Shown piece by piece: positions 137-9,439 of a stretch of DNA of 20,000 nucleotides. This stretch comes from an uncultured virus (IMG/VR IMGVR_UViG_3300028392_001454) (Duplodnaviria > Heunggongvirae > Uroviricota > Caudoviricetes > Crassvirales), in IMG/VR virus record IMGVR_UViG_3300028392_001454; one strand, given 5' to 3'. The translations under genes were made by a program, and so were the position numbers. The notes beneath the pieces were generated by a model. That model did not search any database. It was not told where the DNA came from and worked only from the letters and a program-made list of their open reading frames with translations. Within the stretch, counting starts at the first letter, position 1, and the number at the start of each line of letters is the position of its first letter.

Positions 137-2519
137 GAATATCAGAGACACGTCAACACCATTCTATAGAAACATAGATGTGGTGCTTAACAGAATACAG
201 ACTGGCTCCAGCAAGGACATCGTTGAACGCATCCAGCAAGAGCAAGACAAGACCACACGAAACGAGATCAAGAAGGAGCTACCAGCGATATGTTTCTCTG
301 GAACCTTCACCAAGAGAGCCGACAACGCTATCGTTAGTCATAGTGGGATCATATGCCTTGACTTTGATGGTTACCCAAGCAAGAAGGCTATGCTGGATCA
401 GAAGAAGAAACTATCTGAGGACGCATACGTTTACTCTGTGTTTGTGTCCCCATCTGGAGATGGTCTTAAGGTACTTGTTAGGGTACCATCGGACATAGAG
501 AACCACCTTAACTACTTTAACTCACTACAGAACCACTTCAACTCTGAGTACTTCGACAAGACATCCAAGAACATATCAAGGGTGTGCTACGAGTCCTATG
601 ATAAGAACATATACGTTAACAAGGATTCGAAGATATGGGACACAATTGATAAGGCAGAGTACATAGAGATGGACAGAGCCACATCAGTACCTACCATACC
701 AATCACAAACGAGAACAAGATAGTTGACATCCTAATGTCTTGGTGGACAAAGCGTTATGGATTAGTTGATGGTGAGCGTAACCACAACGTGTACATACTT
801 GCAGCTGCATTTAATGACTACGGAATCAACAAGTCACTAGCTGAGTACATCATGGGGCAGTTCGAGTCAAGTGACTTCCCACTATCAGAGATTAAGACAA
901 CGATCAATTCGGCATACAACCACACCCATAAGTTCGGAACGAAGTACTATGAGGACAATGGTCGTATGTCACAGCTCAGGCAGAAGGTAAAGTCGGGATC
1001 GACAGCCAAACAGCTTAAGAACGAGATGTCAGACATAGACGAGTCGATCATTGACTCGGTCCTAGAGCAGGTCGATAGCGATGTGAAACGGTTCTGGACC
1101 AAGAGTGATAAGGGAGCGATCAATATAGTTCACTACCTGTTTAAGGAGTTCCTTGAGGATAACGGATTCTATAAGTTCTACCCAGAGAACACCAAGACGT
1201 TTGTGTTTGTTAAGGTTACAAACAACCTTATTGACAACACATCGGAGGAAGAGATAAAAGATTTTGTGCTTAAGTACCTTGAAAACACTGAGGATCTGTC
1301 AGTTTATAATTATTTTGCAGATAAAACACGTTTTTTCAAAGAAGATTTCCTATCTTTGCTTTCGTCAGTTGATATTTACTTCGTTGAGGACGATGCGAAT
1401 ACGGCTTACCTTTACTATAATAACTGTGCTGTGATGGTTACAAAAGATAGCGTTAACATTATTGACTATATCGATCTAGGTGGTTACATCTGGAAGGATC
1501 AGGTCGTGGATAGAGACTTCGCTATATGTGAGGTTATGGACTGCGACTTCTCCACCTTCATATCTAACATATCTGGAGACGATCCTCAGAGGGTTAAGTC
1601 GATGCAGAGCACCATAGGTTTCCTTATGCATGGGTACAAGAACCCATCCTACTGCCCAGCTATCATTCTTAATGATGAGGTTATATCAGATAACCCAGAG
1701 GGTGGGACTGGAAAGGGGTTGTTCGTTAACTCTCTGTCAAAGATCAAGAGGGCTGTTACAATAGATGGTAAGGCATTTAGTTTTGATAAGTCATTTAACT
1801 ACTCCACGGTGAACGTTGGTACACAGGTACTTTGCTTTGATGACGTAAAGAAACACTTTGACTTTGAGAGGTTGTTCAGTGTGGTCACCGAGGGTTTGAC
1901 GGTTGAGAAGAAGAACAAGGATGCTATAAAGCTTCCGTTCAACAGATCACCAAAGATCATGATCACCACTAATTATGCGATCAAGGGTAAAGGTAACTCA
2001 TTCGAGAGACGTAAGTGGGAGCTGGAGTTTAAGCAGTTCTATAGCAAGGAGTTCACACCATACATTGAGTTTGGACGCATGCTGTTCAATGACTGGGATG
2101 AGGAGGAGTGGTGCAAGTTTGACAACTACATGATCAACAACCTTAAGGCTTACCTAAGCACTGGTCTTGTTAAGAGTGAGTTTGTTAACCTTAAGATCCG
2201 TAAGCTGTCTGCTGAGACATGCCACGAGTTTATTGAGTGGTGTGGTATGATAGATGGTGTACCTCACAACGACAAGCTAAGGACTGGCGAGTTAATATAC
2301 AAGCAAGACCTTTATATTGACTTCATTCAAGACAATCCTGACTTTGCCCCGAAGGCTAAGATGACTATTAGTAGGACCATATTCTACAAGTGGCTTATAG
2401 CGTTTGGGCTTTATAAGACTGGTGTAACACCTCTTGAGGGTAGAGACAACAACGGCAGATGGATCAAGTTCATCGAGAAGGACGGAGAGACACATAACAA
2501 TAACGAGATGCTATTCTAA
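120..2519 (+). CDS. Primase-helicase: VirE_N/BT4734-like AEP primase domain, PriCT-1 domain, and SF3/AAA+ helicase
   Basis: N-terminal motifs KKELPAICFSGTF, HSGIICLDFD, FVSPSGDGLKVLV and DKTSKNISRVCYESYD. PriCT-like GERNHNVYILAAAF...PLSEIKTTINSAY. Walker A GGTGKG, Walker B LCFDDV, sensor ITTN. Confidence 0.88.
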   Translation: MITIFKNIRDTSTPFYRNIDVVLNRIQTGSSKDIVERIQQEQDKTTRNEIKKELPAICFSGTFTKRADNAIVSHSGIICLDFDGYPSKKAMLDQKKKLSEDAYVYSVFVSPSGDGLKVLVRVPSDIENHLNYFNSLQNHFNSEYFDKTSKNISRVCYESYDKNIYVNKDSKIWDTIDKAEYIEMDRATSVPTIPITNENKIVDILMSWWTKRYGLVDGERNHNVYILAAAFNDYGINKSLAEYIMGQFESSDFPLSEIKTTINSAYNHTHKFGTKYYEDNGRMSQLRQKVKSGSTAKQLKNEMSDIDESIIDSVLEQVDSDVKRFWTKSDKGAINIVHYLFKEFLEDNGFYKFYPENTKTFVFVKVTNNLIDNTSEEEIKDFVLKYLENTEDLSVYNYFADKTRFFKEDFLSLLSSVDIYFVEDDANTAYLYYNNCAVMVTKDSVNIIDYIDLGGYIWKDQVVDRDFAICEVMDCDFSTFISNISGDDPQRVKSMQSTIGFLMHGYKNPSYCPAIILNDEVISDNPEGGTGKGLFVNSLSKIKRAVTIDGKAFSFDKSFNYSTVNVGTQVLCFDDVKKHFDFERLFSVVTEGLTVEKKNKDAIKLPFNRSPKIMITTNYAIKGKGNSFERRKWELEFKQFYSKEFTPYIEFGRMLFNDWDEEEWCKFDNYMINNLKAYLSTGLVKSEFVNLKIRKLSAETCHEFIEWCGMIDGVPHNDKLRTGELIYKQDLYIDFIQDNPDFAPKAKMTISRTIFYKWLIAFGLYKTGVTPLEGRDNNGRWIKFIEKDGETHNNNEMLF

Positions 2520-2710
2520 TGATACGAGAGAAACTAATGGAGATAAACCAAGAGACTTGGAACTCCGACAAGATTGATCTGCAAGAACAGTTTGTGAGAG
2601 AGTTTGCAATAGGATTTGGAGAATATTTAGATACCTTGACAACTGAAGATATGGGAACTTTATCAATTAAAGAACTATTAAAAATCTACGAGAATGGAGA
2701 TAGGGAATAA
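2519..2710 (+). CDS. Hypothetical phage protein (63 aa)
   Basis: TAATG coupling to the primase stop. AT-richer than its flanks. FAIGFGEY resembles AIDFAKW in 3822..4121. Confidence 0.7.
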   Translation: MIREKLMEINQETWNSDKIDLQEQFVREFAIGFGEYLDTLTTEDMGTLSIKELLKIYENGDRE

Positions 2711-2987
2711 GGTTATATGTATCGATGCTGGTAAGCAACCACACACCGCTGAGGAGCTTAACAACGACATGCCAAACTGGGTTGTCAAGGGTAGGACTTA
2801 CACCATAAGAGACGTAGTTGACTCCGACTTTGTTGTCGGGGTTAGGCTTGAGGAGTTGCACAACCCCTCTAGATACTTCAGACTTGTTGACAGGAGTATG
2901 GAGGGGTGCTTTGCCACTTGGAGGTTTAGGAAACAAGAACAGGTAACTAAAGAGGTAGAGAGCTATGAGTACAGTGGACAATTTTAG
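2694..2987 (+). CDS. Hypothetical phage protein (97 aa)
   Basis: ORF overlaps both neighbours and has core-like codon usage. Confidence 0.8.
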   Translation: MEIGNKVICIDAGKQPHTAEELNNDMPNWVVKGRTYTIRDVVDSDFVVGVRLEELHNPSRYFRLVDRSMEGCFATWRFRKQEQVTKEVESYEYSGQF

Positions 2988-3216
2988 GTGGTGTATTGAG
3001 AACGACTGGCAGGTCTACCTCAAACCATATGGTAGTGGAGCGTATATTGCCATCCGTAAGGGGGGTATATCTGCATGTGGTAAGGAGTATCACTATGATA
3101 GGGTGACTGGACTGGAGTACTACTCAAAGGAGAATGTAGGAACAGTATATTACAAAAACATACAGAAGGCAATGGACATGTTGCCAAAGGTTTATAAATA
3201 TTTAAAAGATAAATAA
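2965..3216 (+). CDS. Hypothetical phage protein (83 aa)
   Basis: Co-directional ORF overlapping the upstream gene. Confidence 0.75.
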   Translation: MSTVDNFRWCIENDWQVYLKPYGSGAYIAIRKGGISACGKEYHYDRVTGLEYYSKENVGTVYYKNIQKAMDMLPKVYKYLKDK

Positions 3217-3217
3217 T

Positions 3218-3481
3218 ATGATGATAATAGTAGACGGAAAACACGAGTACGATTATGAAGTACATGATAACGTACACAAACTAAGATATTCAGATAATGA
3301 TTCTTGGACATATCCTAAAGATGTAGCTATGCGAATAGTTGATGATGGGAACGGATTGGTGGTTAAACTTGATGAGAAGGGTAGAATAAACTACGGTGAG
3401 GCAGAAAGATTGATTATACTTCTAAAGATCATTAATAAAAATACCAAGTATGAGGTAGTAACTAATAAAGAGATGTTATGA
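3218..3481 (+). CDS. Hypothetical phage protein (87 aa)
   Basis: A-rich leader (tttaaaagataaataatATG) and ATGA overlap with the next gene. Confidence 0.8.
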   Translation: MMIIVDGKHEYDYEVHDNVHKLRYSDNDSWTYPKDVAMRIVDDGNGLVVKLDEKGRINYGEAERLIILLKIINKNTKYEVVTNKEML

Positions 3482-3825
3482 AACACGAAGTAAAATCTAT
3501 TCCTATAGAAGAAATTCTTGCTAATAGATGTAATGCTTATGAGTTTATTGATTTTGATAAACAAGAAACACAACAAGTAATTGATGAAGATTTTGATGGA
3601 GGTTTAACTATGGGGCAGATTATTCCAAAGGAAGAAACTATTTGCATTCAAACAGGATTACCTTGTGGTATTACTTGTTTCAGCGAAGAAGTTTGTAATA
3701 TAAATTTTTACACTGAAGAAGATGTAAAAAATGCATTCCTTGATGGTTGGTAATTAAGAGATGGAGATTTACCATTTCCTAAAGCAAAGAAAAAATGGTT
3801 TAATGAATTTAAAAAGAAATTATGA
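3478..3825 (+). pseudogene. Small array gene with an internal in-frame TAA at 3751-3753; the full frame ends at TGA 3823-3825
   Basis: After DGW* the same frame continues LRDGDLPFPKAKKKWFNEFKKKL*. This carries the family C-terminal motif and ends in an ATGA overlap with the next gene. Confidence 0.65.
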
Positions 3826-4121
3826 AAACAGCAGTAGAATGGTTACAAGATTGTTTAACAGAGCAATATCCAAATGGTTCATTTGTTTGGAATACAAAAG
3901 CAGATTTAGAAGCTTTATTTAAACAAGCCAAAGAAATGGAAAGAGAACAACAAGGATATACTCAAGAAAAAGTGTTTGAAATAGAAAGATATAGAGCAAT
4001 AGATTTTGCAAAATGGTTTTCAGATTTTAATGGTTTAACTTGGGAAGAAAAAAGAGTAACTAAGGAACGTCTTGATACTCTTTATGAAAAATACTTAGGT
4101 ACACTTGGAGGTGGAATTTAA
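3822..4121 (+). CDS. Modular small phage protein (MKTAVEWL...QAKEME...YTQE)
   Basis: 99-aa ORF sharing exact 20- and 21-nt blocks with 5736..5996. Confidence 0.85.
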   Translation: MKTAVEWLQDCLTEQYPNGSFVWNTKADLEALFKQAKEMEREQQGYTQEKVFEIERYRAIDFAKWFSDFNGLTWEEKRVTKERLDTLYEKYLGTLGGGI

Positions 4122-4145
4122 AAACAATTTAAAAACAAATAAGAT

Positions 4146-4502
4146 ATGCTGTATAAGAGAGTAACTATGCCTATATATAATCAGGTATTGCATATTGCAA
4201 TATGCGATGATGCAGAAAAGGAGATAGAAGAGGTAAATAAGAAGTTCTATACTAACTTGGATAAGTTTGAGTTTTCAGGATATGCTCATAGAGAGGGTAA
4301 GCACTATCTAATACTTCTAAATAAAAAGGAGTTAATAGATGAACCATTTACTATTAGTACAATAGCTCACGAGGCTTTCCATATTACAAGCTTTGTAATG
4401 AAGCGTGTAGGAATACATCCTGATGTTAACAATGATGAAGCTCAGGCATATTTACTCTCTTGGATAGTAGAACAAGTTTATAAATTTTATAAAAAAAAAT
4501 AA
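4146..4502 (+). CDS. Small zincin-like metallopeptidase-fold protein (HExxH)
   Basis: IAHEAFHIT motif followed by a downstream Glu in NNDEAQAYL, a typical minimal zincin arrangement. Confidence 0.7.
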   Translation: MLYKRVTMPIYNQVLHIAICDDAEKEIEEVNKKFYTNLDKFEFSGYAHREGKHYLILLNKKELIDEPFTISTIAHEAFHITSFVMKRVGIHPDVNNDEAQAYLLSWIVEQVYKFYKKK

Positions 4503-4505
4503 TAT

Positions 4506-4595
4506 ATGAAACCACAAAACAAACTTTCAGTAATGATATTAACAATACTTGGAATAATCGAATTAATTGTGTTGATATTACAAGTAATAAGATAA
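4506..4595 (+). CDS. Putative 29-aa single-pass membrane microprotein
   Basis: MKPQNKLSVMILTILGIIELIVLILQVIR*. It fills the space between an A-rich leader and the 4596 repeat exactly. Not in the supplied ORF track. Confidence 0.6.
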   Translation: MKPQNKLSVMILTILGIIELIVLILQVIR

Positions 4596-4646
4596 TTAAA
4601 AACAAATAAGATTAACAGGGAAGCTGAAAACTGAATAGAGTAGGCA

Positions 4647-4666
4647 AAATAAATAAATAAATAAAT
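4647..4666 (+). repeat. (AAAT)5 microsatellite immediately upstream of ATG 4669
   Basis: Direct reading: aaat x5. Confidence 0.85.
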
Positions 4667-4668
4667 AT

Positions 4669-4947
4669 ATGTACACATTAAGAACAATTGAAAAAGATGG
4701 TAGAGAAGTAAACATCTACTTAGGAACAAATTACACGCTTTACAGAAAAGAAAGCATAAGCAAAGAAGACTTTGACTTTAAACTTAATCAGTATTTTGGA
4801 GAAGATACTAATAATGAAGACTTAGAGAAAAGGGATTTAGTAAAAGCATTTATTGATGCAACACATTTACCAAATGCATTAACTATCAATTATGGGGTTA
4901 CGTATTACATTGTAAATGACTCAGGTAAAACATTTCAAAAACTTTAA
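4669..4947 (+). CDS. Hypothetical phage protein (92 aa)
   Basis: The ORF's TAA stop lies within the 4944 junction repeat. Confidence 0.85.
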   Translation: MYTLRTIEKDGREVNIYLGTNYTLYRKESISKEDFDFKLNQYFGEDTNNEDLEKRDLVKAFIDATHLPNALTINYGVTYYIVNDSGKTFQKL

Positions 4948-4958
4948 AAACAAATAAA

Positions 4959-5201
4959 ATGAAACAAAAAACACTTGAAGAAACTTATCTAAATGAACTT
5001 ATTGACGAAGCAAATAAAGAGTTTACTTTAGACAAAAAATTAGCTAAAGAAGTAGCTATAAAGTTTTATAAATGGCAAGAGCAAAGAATGTATACTGAAC
5101 AAGAAGTATTAGTGTTATTACATAAAAGGGATAAGCATAATTGGGATAGAAGTTTATGGCAAACACCTAAAGAATGGTTAGAAAAATTTAAAAATAAATA
5201 A
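4959..5201 (+). CDS. Modular small phage protein (MKQKTLEE...KWQ...MYTEQEV...EWLEKFKNK)
   Basis: 80-aa ORF bounded by repeats at both ends; the 3' repeat encodes FKNK*. Confidence 0.85.
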   Translation: MKQKTLEETYLNELIDEANKEFTLDKKLAKEVAIKFYKWQEQRMYTEQEVLVLLHKRDKHNWDRSLWQTPKEWLEKFKNK

Positions 5202-5204
5202 GAT

Positions 5205-5378
5205 ATGGAAGTAGTGTATAGACATAGCTATGGTAATGATAGTTTTGGAGAAGTAAGAAAAACTAAAGATAATTTATATTACTGTTTTACCACACCACTA
5301 TTTGGTGGTGAATGGATAGAACAAGAAGTTTTTGACGACAAAGAAGAAGCAATAGAGTTTATAAACTCATTAACTTAA
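5205..5378 (+). CDS. Hypothetical protein (57 aa)
   Basis: MEVVYRHSYGNDSFGEVRK...EEAIEFINSLT*. Starts right after repeat 5188 and stops inside repeat 5375. Not in the supplied track. Confidence 0.8.
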   Translation: MEVVYRHSYGNDSFGEVRKTKDNLYYCFTTPLFGGEWIEQEVFDDKEEAIEFINSLT

Positions 5379-5389
5379 AAACAAATAAG

Positions 5390-5605
5390 ATGAAAACACT
5401 TTTAGGAATATTTTTAGTAGCAACTTTATTTTTAGTAACATTTTCTTATTTAGAAACAAAAAAAGACCCTTATGAGGTTGGTAATCATTTAGATTATAAT
5501 GTGAAGTCTATTAATGGATTTATATACATTTCTGCTGATAGAGGTTATATTCAAGTTTTAAACTCTGATGGTACACCTTTAAAAAAAGGACATAAAATTT
5601 ATTGA
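5390..5605 (+). CDS. Small protein with an N-terminal transmembrane/signal segment (71 aa)
   Basis: Hydrophobic stretch MKTLLGIFLVATLFLVTFSYL; bounded by repeats. Confidence 0.8.
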   Translation: MKTLLGIFLVATLFLVTFSYLETKKDPYEVGNHLDYNVKSINGFIYISADRGYIQVLNSDGTPLKKGHKIY

Positions 5606-5628
5606 ACAATTTAAAAACAAATAAAATT

Positions 5629-5724
5629 ATGGTGCAAGGCTATTGGAAAAAAGAAGATAGAGATGCAAGAATGTATTTTTATTATGATGTAATATTAGGT
5701 TTAGTTTATTATTCAGGAATTTAA
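5629..5724 (+). CDS. Putative 31-aa microprotein
   Basis: MVQGYWKKEDRDARMYFYYDVILGLVYYSGI*. Spans from repeat 5611 to repeat 5721, with its stop inside the second repeat. Confidence 0.65.
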   Translation: MVQGYWKKEDRDARMYFYYDVILGLVYYSGI

Positions 5725-5735
5725 AAAGAAATAAG

Positions 5736-5996
5736 ATGAAACAAACAGCAGTAGAATGGTTAGTAAATGAAATCAAGGTAGCAAGAAAACTATGTGATGA
5801 CTCAAGTATGGAAATGGATATTTGGCATACATTAGATGTGCTAATTGCTAAAGAAGAACAAGCCAAAGAAATGGAAAATCAACAGAGAAATTATAGTGAG
5901 GAAGATATGTTAAAATCTTACCATTGTGGCAGATTATATCTAGGTAGAGAAGGTGATACAAATTTTCAAGAATTTTTAAAAGAATTAAACAAGTAA
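5736..5996 (+). CDS. Modular small phage protein (MKQTAVEWL...QAKEME...YSEED)
   Basis: 86-aa ORF with modules shared with 3822..4121. Confidence 0.85.
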   Translation: MKQTAVEWLVNEIKVARKLCDDSSMEMDIWHTLDVLIAKEEQAKEMENQQRNYSEEDMLKSYHCGRLYLGREGDTNFQEFLKELNK

Positions 5997-6000
5997 GATT

Positions 6001-6306
6001 ATGGAACAAACATTAAAAAAGTTTATGGAAAGCTATAAACATTTAGGTAAATTCTACAAAACTAAAAAAGAGTTTAAACAACATATACTATCAGGAGAAG
6101 TTAAAATAACAATACCTGATATGATTAAGTTTGTAGAAGACCACGAAAAAAAATATAATGAAATAGAAGTAATTGAACTATTACAAAAAGCTCTTACACA
6201 TAAAGATGATGGAGAAACAGGTAGTTTAGTTACAGCACAAGGAGAAATAAGAACAGCTAACTTTTATAGTTGGTTTGAAAAATTTAAAAAAGAAAAAGGA
6301 TTATGA
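6001..6306 (+). CDS. Modular small phage protein (...YNEIEV...WFEKFKKEKGL)
   Basis: 101-aa ORF with the C-terminal family motif and an ATGA overlap with the next gene. Confidence 0.85.
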   Translation: MEQTLKKFMESYKHLGKFYKTKKEFKQHILSGEVKITIPDMIKFVEDHEKKYNEIEVIELLQKALTHKDDGETGSLVTAQGEIRTANFYSWFEKFKKEKGL

Positions 6307-6710
6307 AATACAAATTAATAAAAACCTATCCAGGCTCTCCTGAGTTGGGAACAGAGGTAGATAAAAAAGATAGCGATACTTATGTATCTAGTACTTATCT
6401 TACTTTTAGACATGATAACGTAGAGGAGTATCCTGAGTATTGGGAGAAGGTTAATGATCATTTGTGGTGGTGTGTTTGGAAAGAAGATTATATTCAAGAT
6501 GATAAAGTTTGTTTTAATGCTTGGACACCTAATCTAATAGAATGTATATACGCACCTTGGGAAACTGTAAGATGTTTCTTCAAAACCAAAGAAGAGGCTG
6601 AGGATTATATATTATACAACAAACCTTGTTTGAGTATAGATGATATAGGTAATAATGTTCTATTATGTAATTTATCTAGATTAAAACAAATCGTAAAATC
6701 AACACTATGA
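6303..6710 (+). CDS. Hypothetical phage protein (135 aa)
   Basis: ATGA overlaps at both ends. Confidence 0.85.
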   Translation: MKYKLIKTYPGSPELGTEVDKKDSDTYVSSTYLTFRHDNVEEYPEYWEKVNDHLWWCVWKEDYIQDDKVCFNAWTPNLIECIYAPWETVRCFFKTKEEAEDYILYNKPCLSIDDIGNNVLLCNLSRLKQIVKSTL

Positions 6711-6799
6711 AGTACATACTAACAATAATAGGCTACGAGCTTTTAAGAGATAAGATTGTGTGGTTATGGTATTATTTAATTAACAAAGGATCGAAATGA
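6707..6799 (+). CDS. Putative 30-aa hydrophobic microprotein
   Basis: MKYILTIIGYELLRDKIVWLWYYLINKGSK*, with ATGA overlaps to both neighbours. Confidence 0.7.
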   Translation: MKYILTIIGYELLRDKIVWLWYYLINKGSK

Positions 6800-7017
6800 C
6801 AGACAAAGCAAAGGAGTTAATAGATAAGTATTTAAGAACATATCCAATATATGATAATCCAACTGTAGTAATATCTTATACTTATAATGAAGCTAAACAA
6901 TGTGCATTAATAGCAGTTGATGAAGTTATCAAGGCACTACAAGAACACCAATGGCAGAACAGACATATTATTAATGAGTACGAACAACTTAAAAAAGAAT
7001 TATATGAGGGAATATAA
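6796..7017 (+). CDS. Hypothetical phage protein (73 aa; KAKELIDKY...AKQCALIAVDE)
   Basis: ORF coupled to the upstream gene by an ATGA overlap. Confidence 0.8.
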   Translation: MTDKAKELIDKYLRTYPIYDNPTVVISYTYNEAKQCALIAVDEVIKALQEHQWQNRHIINEYEQLKKELYEGI

Positions 7018-7477
7018 AAACAGATACGGTGATGTGTTTACGTTCACTAAAGACGAGAACCACGACATACTATGGGAGGGTAACTTTGAGTATTGTAGAG
7101 TAGGTATGCCTAATGATTATACAAGAGCATATAATGCTTATTGTGAAGACATGGGTAATTTACTAACATCAGAAGAGTTTAAAATAGCTGTCCATAAGTA
7201 TGATAATATCAAGAATGAATACGTTTTAAGTAATAAATATACTATGATGGTAGATTGTTTAAGAGATGAAATAGATATGGTGGATCCATCGGGAGGTCCC
7301 TATCTATCTAGAGGTATGTCTTTAGATTCTCTTGGATTTAAGGGGTATAAAGTTAAAGACTTTAAAAGAATTGAGACTGGATACAAAATCATGACTGATA
7401 AATGTCCTATGTGTCATTTAGCTGGAGGTATTCATAAGATGGGTTGTGAAACAAGAAAAGTAACTATATTATTATGA
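7004..7477 (+). CDS. Hypothetical phage protein (157 aa) with a possible C-terminal CxxC-H-C zinc site
   Basis: The likely start is ATG 7004 (MREYKNRYG, leader cttaaaaaagaattat) rather than 6917, which would overlap the previous gene by about 100 nt. C-terminal CPMCHLAGGIHKMGC. Confidence 0.8.
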   Translation: MREYKNRYGDVFTFTKDENHDILWEGNFEYCRVGMPNDYTRAYNAYCEDMGNLLTSEEFKIAVHKYDNIKNEYVLSNKYTMMVDCLRDEIDMVDPSGGPYLSRGMSLDSLGFKGYKVKDFKRIETGYKIMTDKCPMCHLAGGIHKMGCETRKVTILL

Positions 7478-7860
7478 AAATAGAAATTATAGAGCATTGC
7501 TTCGGGCAATATGTCAACGTAGATGGAATAGACGTCTGCGATAGAGATGATGTGTACTTAAAGCAGGATGTACAAGACAAGAGACTTCTATTAATAGAAG
7601 AACTTAAGGCTAATATGGATGATGTTCATACGGGTGTATGGATTCATATAGCCGAAAATTTAATAGACTTTTTTGATAAGAACGTAGATGAGAGTAGTAG
7701 TGATGTTTGCGAGCAATGTGGTAACTGGAATAGTAATCAAGTCTACGAAAGAAAACAAGCTTTGATAGATATAATGGAAGCAGATGAAAAACTTGGGTTG
7801 TATAACGACATTGTAGATGAAAAAGGAAATATTGTAGGTTTTCTTAAAAAAGATAAATAA
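7474..7860 (+). CDS. Hypothetical phage protein (128 aa) with a CEQCG motif
   Basis: ATGA overlap with the upstream gene. Confidence 0.8.
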   Translation: MKIEIIEHCFGQYVNVDGIDVCDRDDVYLKQDVQDKRLLLIEELKANMDDVHTGVWIHIAENLIDFFDKNVDESSSDVCEQCGNWNSNQVYERKQALIDIMEADEKLGLYNDIVDEKGNIVGFLKKDK

Positions 7861-7864
7861 TATT

Positions 7865-8197
7865 ATGGGAAAAGAAATAAGAATGCCTTATGATGAGTAT
7901 CAAGATATGGTAGAGCAAGTTAAACTTTCAAAAGATATTGTAGATGGTGCATTTGTTTATGAAAATGCTTTTAATGGAAGGTGGTTAGTTTATAATAAAG
8001 AGGAAGCTCTTGAAAAAATGAAGCACCTTGAAAAATCATTAATGAGTATAGTAAAAGAAAGAGATAGTGAAATATATAATCTTAAAGAAGATTTAAGGTT
8101 TACAGATAAACTATTAAAGAAAAACATAGAACAAAAAAGATTACTATATGCTTTCCTAATAGCCTCATTATTGTTTTCAATATTTTCACTTCTTTAA
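7865..8197 (+). CDS. Coiled-coil protein with a C-terminal membrane anchor (110 aa)
   Basis: K/E-rich helical segment followed by LLYAFLIASLLFSIFSLL. Confidence 0.75.
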   Translation: MGKEIRMPYDEYQDMVEQVKLSKDIVDGAFVYENAFNGRWLVYNKEEALEKMKHLEKSLMSIVKERDSEIYNLKEDLRFTDKLLKKNIEQKRLLYAFLIASLLFSIFSLL

Positions 8198-8209
8198 ATA
8201 AATAAAATT

Positions 8210-9439
8210 ATGCAACTACGTGACTACCAAATAGATATAGCAAACAAATCCCTATCCATAATTAAGGAGAAGGGGTTGGTGTACCTATGTGTCGCTGTTC
8301 GCTGCGGAAAGACAATCATGGCTCTAGAAACTGCGAGGATGTATGGAGCGAAGAGGGTTTTGTTTATAACAAAGATCAAAGCCTTCTCATCCATACAGGG
8401 TGACTATGATAAGATGGGCTACACCTACGAGCTTAAGATAATCAACAAGGAGTCTGTTCATAAGCTTGAGGACACCAGCTATGACTTCATCGTACTTGAT
8501 GAGGCTCACCAGTACGGTGCAATGCCAAAGCCAGGTAAGTATCAGAAGATAGTCCGTAAGTTGTTTAGAAAGATGCCGATGATGTTTCTATCTGGGACCA
8601 TGTCCCCAGAGTCTTACTCTCAAGTCTACCACCAGTTCCAGATCTCAGACCGATCACCATTCTCTAAGTACACCACGTTCTACAAGTGGGCTGTTGACTA
8701 TGTTGACGTGTTCATGAAGAACATAGGATACTCTGTGGTTAAGGACTACACCAACGCTAAGTATGACAAGATTGTTCAAGCTATCGAGCCGTACATGATC
8801 ACATTCACACAAGCCGAGGCTAACTTCACCACATCAGTTGAGGAGGAGATCATTGAGATCGACATGAAGCCAGTTACCTATGAGATAATCAGAAGACTTA
8901 AAAAGGACTCGATAGTTAAGGGTAGCAGTGGAAACGTTATAATAGCTGATACAGCCGTTAAAATGCAGCAGAAGATACATCAGCTCGGATCTGGAACGAT
9001 CAAGCACGAGGACGGCTCATATCAAGTCATAGACACATCCAAGGCTGACTACATTAAGTGGAGATTCAAGGATAATAAGATTGGTATATTCTATAAGTAC
9101 AAGGCTGAGCTTGAGATGTTGCGTCAAGTAATTGGTGCAGAAAACTTGACACAAGATGTTGACGAGTTCAACAACACAAGTAAGTGGATAGCTCTTCAGT
9201 ATATTAGTGGAAGAGAGGGAATTAACCTTAGCAAGGCAGACTATCTGGTGATGTTTAGCATCGACTTCTCAGCTACGACCTACTTCCAAGCAATAGATCG
9301 TATGAGTGTAAAGGATCGTACACACAACAAGGTATACTGGCTGTTTGCTAAGAACACACTAGACAAAAGTATTTATAAAACTGTAACAAATAAAAAATCA
9401 TTCACCTTAAATTATTTTAAAAAATGGAAGAGTACATAA
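8210..9439 (+). CDS. Superfamily 2 (DExH; SNF2/ResIII-like) phage helicase
   Basis: Q motif LRDYQ, Walker A AVRCGKT, Walker B IVLDEAH, motif III LSGT, motif V SGREGINL, motif VI QAIDRM. Confidence 0.9.
   Translation: MQLRDYQIDIANKSLSIIKEKGLVYLCVAVRCGKTIMALETARMYGAKRVLFITKIKAFSSIQGDYDKMGYTYELKIINKESVHKLEDTSYDFIVLDEAHQYGAMPKPGKYQKIVRKLFRKMPMMFLSGTMSPESYSQVYHQFQISDRSPFSKYTTFYKWAVDYVDVFMKNIGYSVVKDYTNAKYDKIVQAIEPYMITFTQAEANFTTSVEEEIIEIDMKPVTYEIIRRLKKDSIVKGSSGNVIIADTAVKMQQKIHQLGSGTIKHEDGSYQVIDTSKADYIKWRFKDNKIGIFYKYKAELEMLRQVIGAENLTQDVDEFNNTSKWIALQYISGREGINLSKADYLVMFSIDFSATTYFQAIDRMSVKDRTHNKVYWLFAKNTLDKSIYKTVTNKKSFTLNYFKKWKST

Follow-up and report, generated by a model that had tools for sequence, protein, structure and literature searches.

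A very large family of small phage proteins with variable segments that reassort between anchors conserved as DNA

Results

Genes, repeats and modules of the window

The window, i.e., the whole 20-kb stretch of DNA analysed here, belongs to a freshwater Bacteroidota phage, and has a G+C content of 34%. Its small genes occupy about 5.7 kb, whereas the relative MW202828.1 has just one gene of 336 nt at this place. Genes A to E, a small upstream ORF and the associated repeats are listed in Table 1.

Table 1. Features of the window, with positions counted from its first nucleotide.
Feature	Position	Strand	Description
Small ORF	2519..2710	+	63 aa; body resembles a C-terminal module joined to the N-terminal half of B in other phages
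Gene A	3478..3824	+	unique N-terminal part; class-II C-terminal domain broken by in-frame TAA (3751-3753)
Junction motif, eight copies	3809..5739	all +	found by regex scan and repeat families D1-D5
Gene B	3822..4121	+	99 aa; anchor 1 residues 3-8, spacer 9-34, anchor 2 35-40, own C-terminal module 41-99
Anchor 1 copy in B	3826..3845	+	exact 20-mer
Anchor 2 copy in B	3922..3942	+	exact 21-mer with the locally rare Ala codon GCC
Junction element, copy behind B	4123..4148	+	stop of B, then in-frame K-Q-F-K-N-K-stop codons, then next ATG
Gene C	4959..5201	+	80 aa; different N-terminal part and class-II C-terminal domain
Junction element, second exact 20-mer copy	5605..5630	+	non-coding, out of frame with the upstream gene
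Gene D	5736..5996	+	86 aa; anchor 1 residues 4-9, spacer 10-41, anchor 2 42-47, class-II C-terminal domain 48-86
Anchor 1 copy in D	5743..5762	+	exact 20-mer
Anchor 2 copy in D	5857..5877	+	exact 21-mer
Gene E	6001..6306	+	101 aa; different N-terminal part and class-II C-terminal domain

As reported in the preliminary description, an exact 20-mer comprising the TAVEWL codons (anchor 1) and an exact 21-mer comprising the QAKEME codons (anchor 2) are each present once in B and once in D, which was borne out by direct search as well as by dinucleotide shuffling, where two matches were obtained in 0 of 200 shuffles for either repeat, even when permitting three mismatches. Together with a junction 20-mer (at 4123 and 5605), they are the top three exact direct repeats by length in the window; the longest repeat in Markov-1 simulated windows (n = 100) has a mean length of 14.7 nt and a maximum of 20 nt. 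B and D share 35% identity over 57 aa (BLASTP, E 7e-7). Their spacers of 26 and 32 aa, respectively, had been regarded as unrelated. The two genes are collinear paralogues, and their similarity resides mostly in the anchors. The anchor identity between them is due to the family-wide anchor sequence that both carry, and the window itself bears no sign that B and D have recently exchanged sequence with each other.

Peptides of the type Y-[STN]-E-x-x-V had been proposed as a further module, and the translations at 3709, 3957, 5091, 5892, and 6154 are correct. A profile of the corresponding class-II domain (Y-[ST]-E-E-x-V ... W-x-E-x-F-K-x-K) supports this module in D (E 6e-9), E (2.5e-8), C (2.4e-6), and A (1.7e-3) but not in the C-terminal part of B (E 1.2), which carries a different module. 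When gene A is read through with X at its in-frame stop codon, the profile is matched over 35 of 35 positions (E 5e-12), and the homologue P0135 has a sense codon where A has TAA. The W-x-x-x-F-K-K endings, described as a fourth module terminating three frames, do occur at 3796, 5175, and 6271. However, they are largely a DNA-level gene-junction element. The frame that ends at 3819 does not represent a gene of its own but continues gene 3478-3753 behind the in-frame TAA, and the tail (3754-3821) has W-F-N-E-F-K-K-K at its end. With these amendments, the initial observation of repeats and modules is confirmed. In addition, the small ORF resembles P0119, P0133, and P0148 at 36-42% identity (BLASTP, E 5e-7 to 5e-5).

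Seven of the eight junction copies immediately precede a start codon (starts at 3809, 4129, 4944, 5188, 5375, 5611, and 5721), and the copy at 4596, with no ORF after it, sits just before a DUF805b match. In viral contigs, the junction 20-mer occurs at 126 distinct sites, 79 of them reading as the end of an ORF and 47 not, and the next ATG is found within 12 nt at 120 sites. A regulatory cassette of the PeSL type, combining a sigma-70-like promoter with a stem-loop terminator, was considered and rejected, as promoter-like sigma-70 sites are not in excess in the window (26 versus 31.3 expected, none at junction copies, in a scan that does not cover Bacteroidota-type promoters) and terminator hairpins are absent from the + strand, all three terminator-like sites being on the − strand.

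A family of at least 9071 clusters

A family profile built from 52 members matches 9071 representative clusters (at 50% identity) with E ≤1e-3 and 2179 with E ≤1e-10, all in all a very large, undescribed family of small phage proteins of about 55-110 aa. At least 126 IMG/VR contig stretches contain the 20-mer of anchor 1, and at least 121 contain the 21-mer of anchor 2. In the alignment of the 52 members (A1), the conserved motifs are collinear and in fixed order, with A5, V6, A27, and E31 being invariant and T4, E7, W8, L9, K28, M30, and Q34 at least 90% conserved. The common plan runs from anchor 1 (start codon and TAVEWL codons) through a variable spacer and anchor 2 (QAKEME codons plus a few further ones) to a second variable segment, the C-terminal one, and closes at the end of the gene with anchor 3. 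The latter is of the YYNETF-K type in most members and of the W-x-E-x-F-K-N-K type in the window, where it runs into the junction sequence before the next start codon.

Searches of Pfam, PHROGs, and PDB sequences gave no significant match to family proteins, tblastn searches of 50,697 GenBank phage records with B, D, and L021 were likewise without a significant match, and PADLOC, Foldseek, and VIA-align returned nothing specific on function. The Pfam family DUF5734 was discarded, reaching at best 18.3 bits versus a gathering cut-off of 27 for one of 14 proteins (L021) and having no match to the window proteins. Pfam matches among 123 neighbouring ORFs include YqaJ (2), ERF (1), NinB (1), NinG (2), DnaA_C (10), HNH (4), and SNF2 (3); these domains place the family genes in an early region devoted to replication and recombination.

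Silent sites are frozen in the anchors

Across hundreds of contigs that are otherwise unrelated, the anchors are kept at the DNA level, including their silent sites. In 89 genes from 72 of 80 loci, a sample chosen at the protein level, codon choice inside the anchors is fixed much more rigidly than codon bias would account for. At anchor 1, Thr is encoded by ACA in 83 of 87 cases (background 0.40), Ala by GCA in 86 of 89 (0.43), and Val by GTA in 73 of 85 (0.38). At anchor 2, Ala is GCC in 73 of 89 genes (82%; background 0.12), and at anchor 3 Tyr is TAC in 57 of 68 and Asn is AAC in 28 of 34. Outside the anchors of the same genes, the respective numbers are 9/130 for GCC (Fisher 9e-32, although Fisher p-values overstate significance here because family members are non-independent samples), 58/126 for ACA, and 56/165 for TAC. 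Exact 18-nt cores were observed in 30 of 67 and 15 of 54 genes, at expected probabilities, given the amino acids, of 0.016 and 0.021. Synonymous sites of the primase are saturated between this phage and its nearest GenBank relative (62% amino acid identity), with the same codon at 215 of 480 identical residues (0.448 versus 0.427 expected) and a longest exact match of 17 nt.

Ordinary paralogue drift, with residues kept for the protein and nucleotides by codon bias in an AT-rich genome, would suit the window's 34% G+C and the fact that most anchor codons are common A-ending ones. Its probability is nevertheless close to negligible, as it is contradicted by the codon data, i.e., the exact cores set against their expected probabilities and the use of GCC at 82% of anchor sites compared with 7-12% in the background, and also by the module graph and the cassette swaps between near-identical contigs described below. 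Alternatively, the anchors might be kept for a function at the nucleotide level, with anchor 1 as a translation-initiation region that extends into the first codons, anchor 3 plus junction serving initiation of the next gene and anchor 2 as a binding site or RNA element, recombination being a by-product. In line with this, anchor 1 abuts the start codon and has A-ending codons, the junction 20-mer is non-coding at more than a third of its sites (47/126) and has an ATG nearby at nearly all (120/126), and Bacteroidota, described as lacking Shine-Dalgarno sequences, rely on upstream positions, e.g., A at −3 (PMC6847099). In contrast, anchor 2 is located mid-gene and is fixed on the locally rare GCC followed by G-ending codons, while anchor 3 favours C-ending ones, and three different codon flavours in three anchors fit frozen DNA better than one expression rule. 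Moreover, the 5' regions fold no better than shuffles (z of −0.88 for B and −0.64 for D), the anchors match no Rfam family, and reassortment itself would be left unexplained. Conservation for a nucleotide-level function is hence an unlikely explanation.

Spacers and C-terminal parts reassort independently

The two variable segments of the family reassort independently, the exchange boundaries fall in the anchors, and near-identical phages differ by single cassettes. In a module graph of 233 family genes, all comparative data being from short-read metagenome assemblies, 23 of 26 multi-gene spacer clusters join at least two C-terminal clusters, so the same spacer is found with different neighbours, and in the reverse direction 22 of 26 C-terminal clusters join at least two spacer clusters. 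The graph is without a closed cycle and, therefore, any individual case might in principle reflect only one exchange event. Gene pairs with at least 85% nucleotide identity (251 genes) share this identity in the spacer only (32), in the C-terminal part only (17), or in both (5), and identity blocks stop within anchors or at gene ends. The sole difference between the near-identical contigs L036 and L108 is one cassette bounded exactly by anchors, and likewise one cassette with anchors as borders differs in the near-identical trio L115/L133/L240.

The window genes take part in this reassortment. B has 158 homologues, and of the 119 compared, 86 align only to its N-terminal 70 residues or fewer and 16 only to its C-terminal part. 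Among 37 of the 67 homologues of D, 28 combine its spacer with another C-terminal part, six its C-terminal module with another spacer, and none has both. The N-terminal half of B is joined to residues 27 to end of A in P0135, to residues 42-80 of C in P0123 (85% identity) and to the C-terminal module of E in P0100, P0112, P0099, P0116, and P0162 (74-88% identity). The preliminary description had suggested in-frame recombination at anchors as a source of chimeric proteins, with spacers expected next to different neighbours and synonymous sites expected to be conserved within anchors. Both expectations hold, and the support for this interpretation comes mainly from sequences that lie outside the window.

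Since every locus comes from a short-read assembly and many co-occurring phages share the anchors as repeats, assemblers might have joined reads of different members at shared anchors. However, identical full-length combinations are found in different metagenomes (L269/L270, L281/L282, L310/L315, and L023/L067), and protein clusters recur on as many as 19 contigs. Copies of a shared module are separated by point changes, the spacer of D existing in many variants, and chimeric joining cannot generate this divergence. In the trio L115/L133/L240, each contig would require two exact chimeric joins. The last k-mers employed in standard assemblies exceed the anchors in length, and codon freezing would be left unexplained, making such an artefact very unlikely.

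A dedicated enzyme driving exchange, i.e., a site-specific recombinase, a homing endonuclease cutting at anchors or a retroelement, could be sought in the HNH and GIY-YIG domains encoded by four and one, respectively, of the 123 neighbouring ORFs. This is extremely unlikely, as no neighbour is constant across loci, the small-gene region of the window has no reverse transcriptase, integrase, or endonuclease, and breakpoints are spread over whole anchor blocks instead of one point. A target of a diversity-generating retroelement was specifically dismissed, since no reverse-transcriptase domain was detected in the 28 window ORFs scanned and the segments differ in length, are unrelated and are not adenine-mutated.

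Predicted fold

AlphaFold2 predicts three helices for L021 (pLDDT 87.4, pTM 0.71) and four for D (pLDDT 83.5), in both cases with the anchors inside helices; the anchors thus map to the helices of the predicted three-helix fold. From these helix positions, as distinct from measured contacts, we infer that the anchors would form the hydrophobic core.

Discussion

Proposed mechanism and meaning

The most likely mechanism, to which we assign a probability of roughly 0.8 on the sequence evidence, is short-homology recombination at the anchors between members of a large family of helical proteins. Cassettes would be exchanged by homologous recombination or gene conversion on 15-35 nt of anchor identity between paralogues in one genome as well as between co-infecting phages, probably by phage single-strand-annealing recombinases tolerant of short homology. 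The anchors would be homogenised in turn by repeated exchange, which may explain the frozen rare codon. As they are proposed to encode the packing parts of a three-helix scaffold, in-frame chimeras would stay folded, and the cassettes would be putative surface-exposed determinants of specificity in early accessory proteins that take part in host or phage conflict. Between random member pairs, exact identity of at least 20 nt is found for 17.5% at anchor 1 and 26.5% at anchor 2, and of at least 23 nt for 6.9 and 14%, respectively. Minimal efficient pairing segments are given as 23-27 bp for Red-beta and 31-34 bp for RecA (PMC3945230), and the exact identity between B and D, only 20-21 nt, is just under the former. 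A domain scan of the window ORFs detected no recombinase gene within the 20 kb.

A more far-reaching reading, which we regard as doubtful, is a population-wide combinatorial library, in which the frozen in-frame anchors would be dedicated recombination linkers selected for evolvability, comparable to integron attC sites or pilin minicassette borders inside an 80-aa protein, and would rapidly reassort binding surfaces of early anti-host or anti-defence proteins in freshwater Bacteroidota phages. Under this reading, anchor conservation would be more than a side effect of exchange by general recombination.

Short-homology exchange at the anchors would provide sequence-level evidence that phage mosaicism, the contested mechanism of which is more often ascribed to illegitimate recombination and subsequent selection, can arise by homologous exchange at short conserved intragenic linkers. 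With at least 9071 clusters, and being absent from Pfam, PHROGs, and cultured-phage records, the family would be a main constituent of freshwater Bacteroidota phage genomes that has so far been overlooked. A small, predicted three-helix scaffold tolerant of free two-segment exchange might represent a natural design for protein libraries, and the frozen anchors could be employed as PCR handles for cassette diversity in environmental DNA. If cassettes determine host targets, a tractable system for arms-race diversification without a retroelement would be available.

Comparison with known systems

In Neisseria pilin, variable minicassettes lie between short conserved stretches guiding in-frame gene conversion, with silent donor copies within one genome, resulting in antigenic variation in a bacterium. 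In contrast, all copies of the present family appear to be expressed, and the phage population serves as the pool of donors. Botstein's modular theory reportedly holds that interchangeable phage modules are flanked by short conserved sequences, the homologous linkers, at which homologous recombination occurs. Here, however, the linkers are inside reading frames and encode conserved helices and, consequently, what is exchanged is a portion of a protein instead of an entire gene or a functional block.

A mechanism for mosaics on short or diverged homology is offered by the relaxed homologous recombination of Rad52-like phage recombinases (De Paepe et al., 2014; PMC3945230), although it has been described there for temperate coliphages and prophages (PMC3945230), whereas only three of 123 neighbouring ORFs in our loci encode ERF or YqaJ. 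PeSL regulatory cassettes in hyperplastic regions of T4-type phages (Arbiol et al., 2010; PMC2839356) likewise feature a short repeated DNA element bordering small non-essential genes, which are shuffled by recombination between copies (PMC2839356), but in the present case the junction element overlaps the last codons of the upstream gene and exchange is also sub-genic.

The closest likeness in working is to the gp38 adhesins of T-even phages, in which glycine-rich motifs (GRMs) separate hypervariable segments (HVSs; Trojet et al., 2011; PMC3157838). There, too, the conserved motifs are strictly ordered and thought to form a structural core, and the variable segments, drawn from a palette, are exchanged by recombination with the reading frame kept in chimeras (PMC3157838). 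Both collinear motifs and independent reassortment are found in the present family, which speaks for working alike, not for homology. No significant Pfam or PHROG match and no adhesin among the fold-search matches listed links the two, an absence compatible with a relation. The present proteins are helical, of 55-110 aa and encoded in the early region, whereas gp38 is a virion adhesin; the family is far larger, with 9071 clusters, and displays synonymous freezing across unrelated phages, a feature not mentioned in the cited sections of the gp38 study (PMC3157838). The family and its scale appear new, while the principle is already known from T-even gp38.

Exact repeats in the window and the family they define

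The preliminary description had placed an exact 20-mer encoding TAVEWL (anchor 1) and an exact 21-mer encoding QAKEME (anchor 2) at two sites each among five small genes, here called A to E, and both repeats were recovered at these positions; the peptide motifs described there likewise all translate as given. These two and a 20-mer found at gene junctions rank as the top three exact direct repeats of the window by length, while the longest repeat in 100 simulated windows had a mean length of 14.7 nt and a maximum of 20 nt. Genes B and D, which carry both anchors, are collinear paralogs (35% identity over 57 aa, E 7e-7).

Features of the window with their positions
Feature	Position	Strand	Remarks
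BT4734-type primase/helicase	120-2519		
Gene A	3478-3824	+	in-frame TAA at 3751-3753
Junction motif, eight copies	between 3809 and 5739	+	
Gene B	3822-4121	+	
Anchor 1	3826-3845, 5743-5762	+	exact 20-mer, TAVEWL codons
Anchor 2	3922-3942, 5857-5877	+	exact 21-mer, QAKEME codons
118-aa protein	4146-4502	+	phrog_1365, E 2e-18
Rfam DUF805b RNA motif	4614-4646	+	38.8 bits, gathering score 35.6, E 6e-8
Gene C	4959-5201	+	
Gene D	5736-5996	+	
Gene E	6001-6306	+	
SNF2 helicase	8210-9439		
ORF of at least 2354 aa	12933-20000	-	runs off the window

In IMG/VR contigs, the exact 20-mer of anchor 1 occurs in at least 126 stretches and the 21-mer of anchor 2 in at least 121. The surrounding ORFs share a common plan in which M-(K)-(Q)-TAVEWL is followed by a spacer of 15-33 aa, by QAKEME-K-E-Q and by a variable segment, mostly ending in E-Q-YYNETF-K (anchor 3). 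In a minority, including B and D, anchor 2 is followed by Q-G-Y-[ST]-E-E-x-V and the terminus is W-x-E-x-F-K-N-K. A 52-member profile searched against 1.84 billion representatives matched 9071 representative clusters at E <=1e-3, 2179 of them at E <=1e-10. Some proteins of 130-227 aa contain two family copies; in the relatives P0188, P0189, P0192, P0193, P0270, P0290, P0333 and P0335, two complete units are arranged in tandem in one polypeptide, looking as if adjoining family genes had fused. Among 185,579 species genomes, 13 loci and no more were confirmed, all in freshwater MAGs, mostly of Bacteroidota (Sediminibacterium, Flavobacterium, Chitinophaga). Searching 50,697 GenBank phage records by tblastn with B, D and a typical member gave no match, for B and D not even at E 1, and a literature search on the anchor motif strings and on mosaic or small proteins of Flavobacterium phages found no description of the family.

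Reassortment of spacers and C-terminal parts

Loci with exact anchors yielded 223 distinct ORFs, of which 173 were kept, the other 50 being without recognizable second anchor or running off the locus. Among the 173, spacer identity of >=70% was found in 33 pairs, with unrelated C-terminal parts in 29, and C-terminal identity of >=70% in 32 pairs, with unrelated spacers in 26. The same picture emerges at DNA level from 251 genes with 80-nt flanks compared at >=85% identity: 32 pairs share the spacer only, 17 the C-terminal part only, 18 the upstream flank only and 18 the downstream flank only, while spacer and C-terminal part are shared together by 5 pairs (counts were similar with 150-nt flanks). 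Clustering of 233 genes resulted in 193 spacer clusters, 175 C-terminal clusters and 227 combinations. In line with the earlier prediction that one spacer should appear with different neighbors, 23 of the 26 multi-gene spacer clusters are linked to at least two C-terminal clusters; conversely, 22 of 26 multi-gene C-terminal clusters are linked to at least two spacer clusters. The spacer/C-terminal graph of these 233 genes does not contain a closed cycle, indicating that sampling is far from saturation.

Where segments are shared, identity ends in the anchors or at the gene ends. From shared spacers it extends 15-41 nt leftward, across anchor 1 and as far as roughly the start codon, and 17-41 nt rightward, through anchor 2, while from shared C-terminal parts it extends 27-42 nt leftward, up to the start of anchor 2, and 1-15 nt beyond the stop. 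Loci L036 and L108 are near-identical over >250 nt on either side and differ solely by an unrelated spacer of other length placed exactly between anchors 1 and 2. Loci L133 and L240 have flanks and spacer in common, their sole difference lying between anchor 2 and the C-terminal anchor. The flanks of L115 are again the same, combined with another spacer and another C-terminal part. In the three-way alignment of these loci, divergence begins and ends at the three anchors.

All evidence comes from assembled contigs. Chimeric joins made during assembly are an unlikely source of the combinations, as identical ones recur in independent metagenomes and point changes have since accumulated in the shared modules.

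Judged by their homologs, the small genes of the window are themselves chimeras of reassorted modules. For D, 67 homologs were found and 37 fetched; by reading of the alignments, 28 of the 37 combine D's spacer with other C-terminal parts, 6 combine its C-terminal module with other spacers and none has both. For B, 119 of 158 homologs were compared by coverage classes, 86 aligning to the first <=70 residues only and 16 to the C-terminal part only. B's N-terminal half is joined to the body of gene A in the metagenomic protein P0135 (85% identity), to the C-terminal module of gene C in P0123 (85%), to that of gene E in five proteins (74-88%) and elsewhere to a module resembling ORF 2519-2710 (36-42%). 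For the class-II C-terminal domain (Y-[ST]-E-E-x-V ... W-x-E-x-F-K-x-K), a profile built from 31 outside sequences and run on the 334 stop-to-stop ORFs of the window matches genes A, C, D and E; the C-terminal part of B is left unmatched. In gene A, the domain is interrupted by the in-frame TAA; when this is read through as X, all 35 profile positions are matched (E 5e-12), the 23 codons after it completing the domain. P0135 has a sense codon at this site, and the TAA of gene A could be a nonsense mutation, a sequencing error or a site of read-through.

Frozen synonymous sites at the anchors

For avoiding selection by nucleotide identity, the sample for codon analysis was chosen at protein level by degenerate back-translation of the peptide pattern, giving at least 607 stretches, 477 of them confirmed; the best 80 loci were used, 72 of which contained, by motif scan, a total of 89 genes. 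At anchor 1, Thr is encoded by ACA in 83/87 cases (background 0.40), Ala by GCA in 86/89 (0.43) and Val by GTA in 73/85 (0.38); at anchor 2, Ala is encoded by GCC in 73/89 (0.12), Gln by CAA in 71/71 (0.68) and Lys by AAA in 88/89 (0.62), with the reservation that the family members are related and p-values from such counts overstate independence. Exact 18-nt cores are present in 30/67 and 15/54 of the genes having those residues, at expected probabilities of 0.016 and 0.021. In the C-terminal motif, the frozen codons are C-ending ones (TAC 27/34 and 30/34, AAC 28/34), and after anchor 2 a tendency to G-ending codons is seen. At sites of these genes outside the anchors, GCC encodes 9/130 Ala, ACA 58/126 Thr and TAC 56/165 Tyr residues, bearing out the expectation of stronger synonymous conservation inside the anchors than outside. 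As an outside control, the primase of the window and its nearest relative use the same codon at 215/480 identical residues, a share of 0.448 versus 0.427 expected, with a longest exact match of 17 nt; hence, silent sites are saturated between real relatives.

Three anchors with three codon flavors fit DNA identity by descent and homogenization better than a general codon preference. In a sub-group (L001, L026, L036, L044, L064, L068), the start M-A-Q-Q-T-A-V-E-W-L co-occurs with Q-A-K-A-M-E at anchor 2, which hints at lineage-specific homogenization of the anchors. No support was obtained for an RNA structure that connects anchor 1 with anchor 2, and an Rfam search gave no match at the anchors.

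A DNA element at the gene junctions

The coordinates of a supposed fourth protein module, W-x-x-x-F-K-K, translate as previously noted; the element is largely one of DNA. Seven of the eight copies of the approximately 20-nt junction motif directly precede a start codon, while the copy at 4596 is without following ORF. The frame relative to the upstream stop differs among copies, one frame reading (E)-Q-F-K-N-K-stop, and behind B's stop such a remnant continues in frame. The exact 20-mer occurs at at least 126 distinct viral-contig sites; among the 126 listed, 79 end an ORF open for >=30 aa and 47 do not, and the next ATG is <=12 nt away at 120. Scanning the window revealed neither a sigma-70 promoter nor a plus-strand terminator signal at the element. 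It fits a compact gene junction doubling as 3' anchor. Translation initiation without Shine-Dalgarno sequences is described for Bacteroidota (PMC6847099). The DUF805b match lies just after a copy of the motif, inside the sole sizeable ORF-free gap (4503-4668).

Genomic setting, predicted structure and function

The closest GenBank phage record to the window, whose phage genome has a G+C content of 34%, is the uncultured podovirus MW202828.1 (primase identity 62%), followed by Flavobacterium phages of the elemo group (43%). Between primase and SNF2 helicase (2519-8200), the window accommodates about 19 small plus-strand genes in about 5.7 kb, whereas a single 336-nt gene is found there in MW202828.1 (L341, 10431-10818), placing the finding in a hyperplastic early region. 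Further genes of the window encode a VRR-NUC nuclease and a DNA-transfer-like protein, besides the giant minus-strand ORF. For the latter, there is no Pfam or PHROG match, and the 'structural proteins' to which it shows only patchy similarity, over 6-13% of its length at 28-35% identity, come from Flavobacterium elemo phages, Tenacibaculum phage Gundel_1 and MW202828.1. The 118-aa protein shows a weak SprT-like match under the cut-off and an H-E-x-x-H motif, and may be a small metalloprotease-like protein.

Around family genes at other loci, 123 of 125 adjoining ORFs were scanned, two L270 duplicates being left out. The matched neighbors (DnaA_C 10, HNH 4, DNA methylases 4, SNF2 3, NinG 2, NinB 1, YqaJ 2, ERF 1, primase 2) belong to early replication, recombination and nucleotide metabolism. 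At L250, L308 and L320, an HNH endonuclease (203 aa), the family gene and a DnaA C-terminal HTH protein (about 135 aa) recur in this order.

AlphaFold2 predicts three helices for the typical member L021 (5-16, 21-41, 48-63; pLDDT 87.4, pTM 0.71) and four for D (5-21, 29-50, 55-69, 77-85; pLDDT 83.5). Anchor 1 opens helix 1 and anchor 2 lies within helix 2; in the typical form, anchor 3 closes the final helix. That the anchors pack together is inferred from these models. With both models, Foldseek did not find a PDB match at E <=1e-3, and a wide VIA-align search gave generic helical hairpins at a top Z of 6.5. Searches by homology returned no significant match for 14 family proteins in Pfam and PHROGs, none in Pfam for 37 longer or fused relatives, 0/19 with PADLOC save a weak match on an unrelated ORF, and nothing significant in a PDB sequence profile search with the family (best E 0.032). 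In the ESM Atlas, unnamed viral clusters alone were matched (score 0.88).

Proposed exchange by short homology and comparison with known systems

At anchor 1, 17.5% of random member pairs are exactly identical over >=20 nt and 6.9% over >=23 nt; at anchor 2, the shares are 26.5% and 14%. According to PMC3945230, efficient pairing requires 23-27 bp for Red-beta and 31-34 bp for RecA. As the anchor identities reach the Red-beta range, the family is read as putative cassettes exchanged by short-homology recombination, a process which would itself keep the anchors uniform. Among described cases, the GRM/HVS design of T-even gp38 (PMC3157838) and PeSL-mediated gene shuffling (PMC2839356) come closest.
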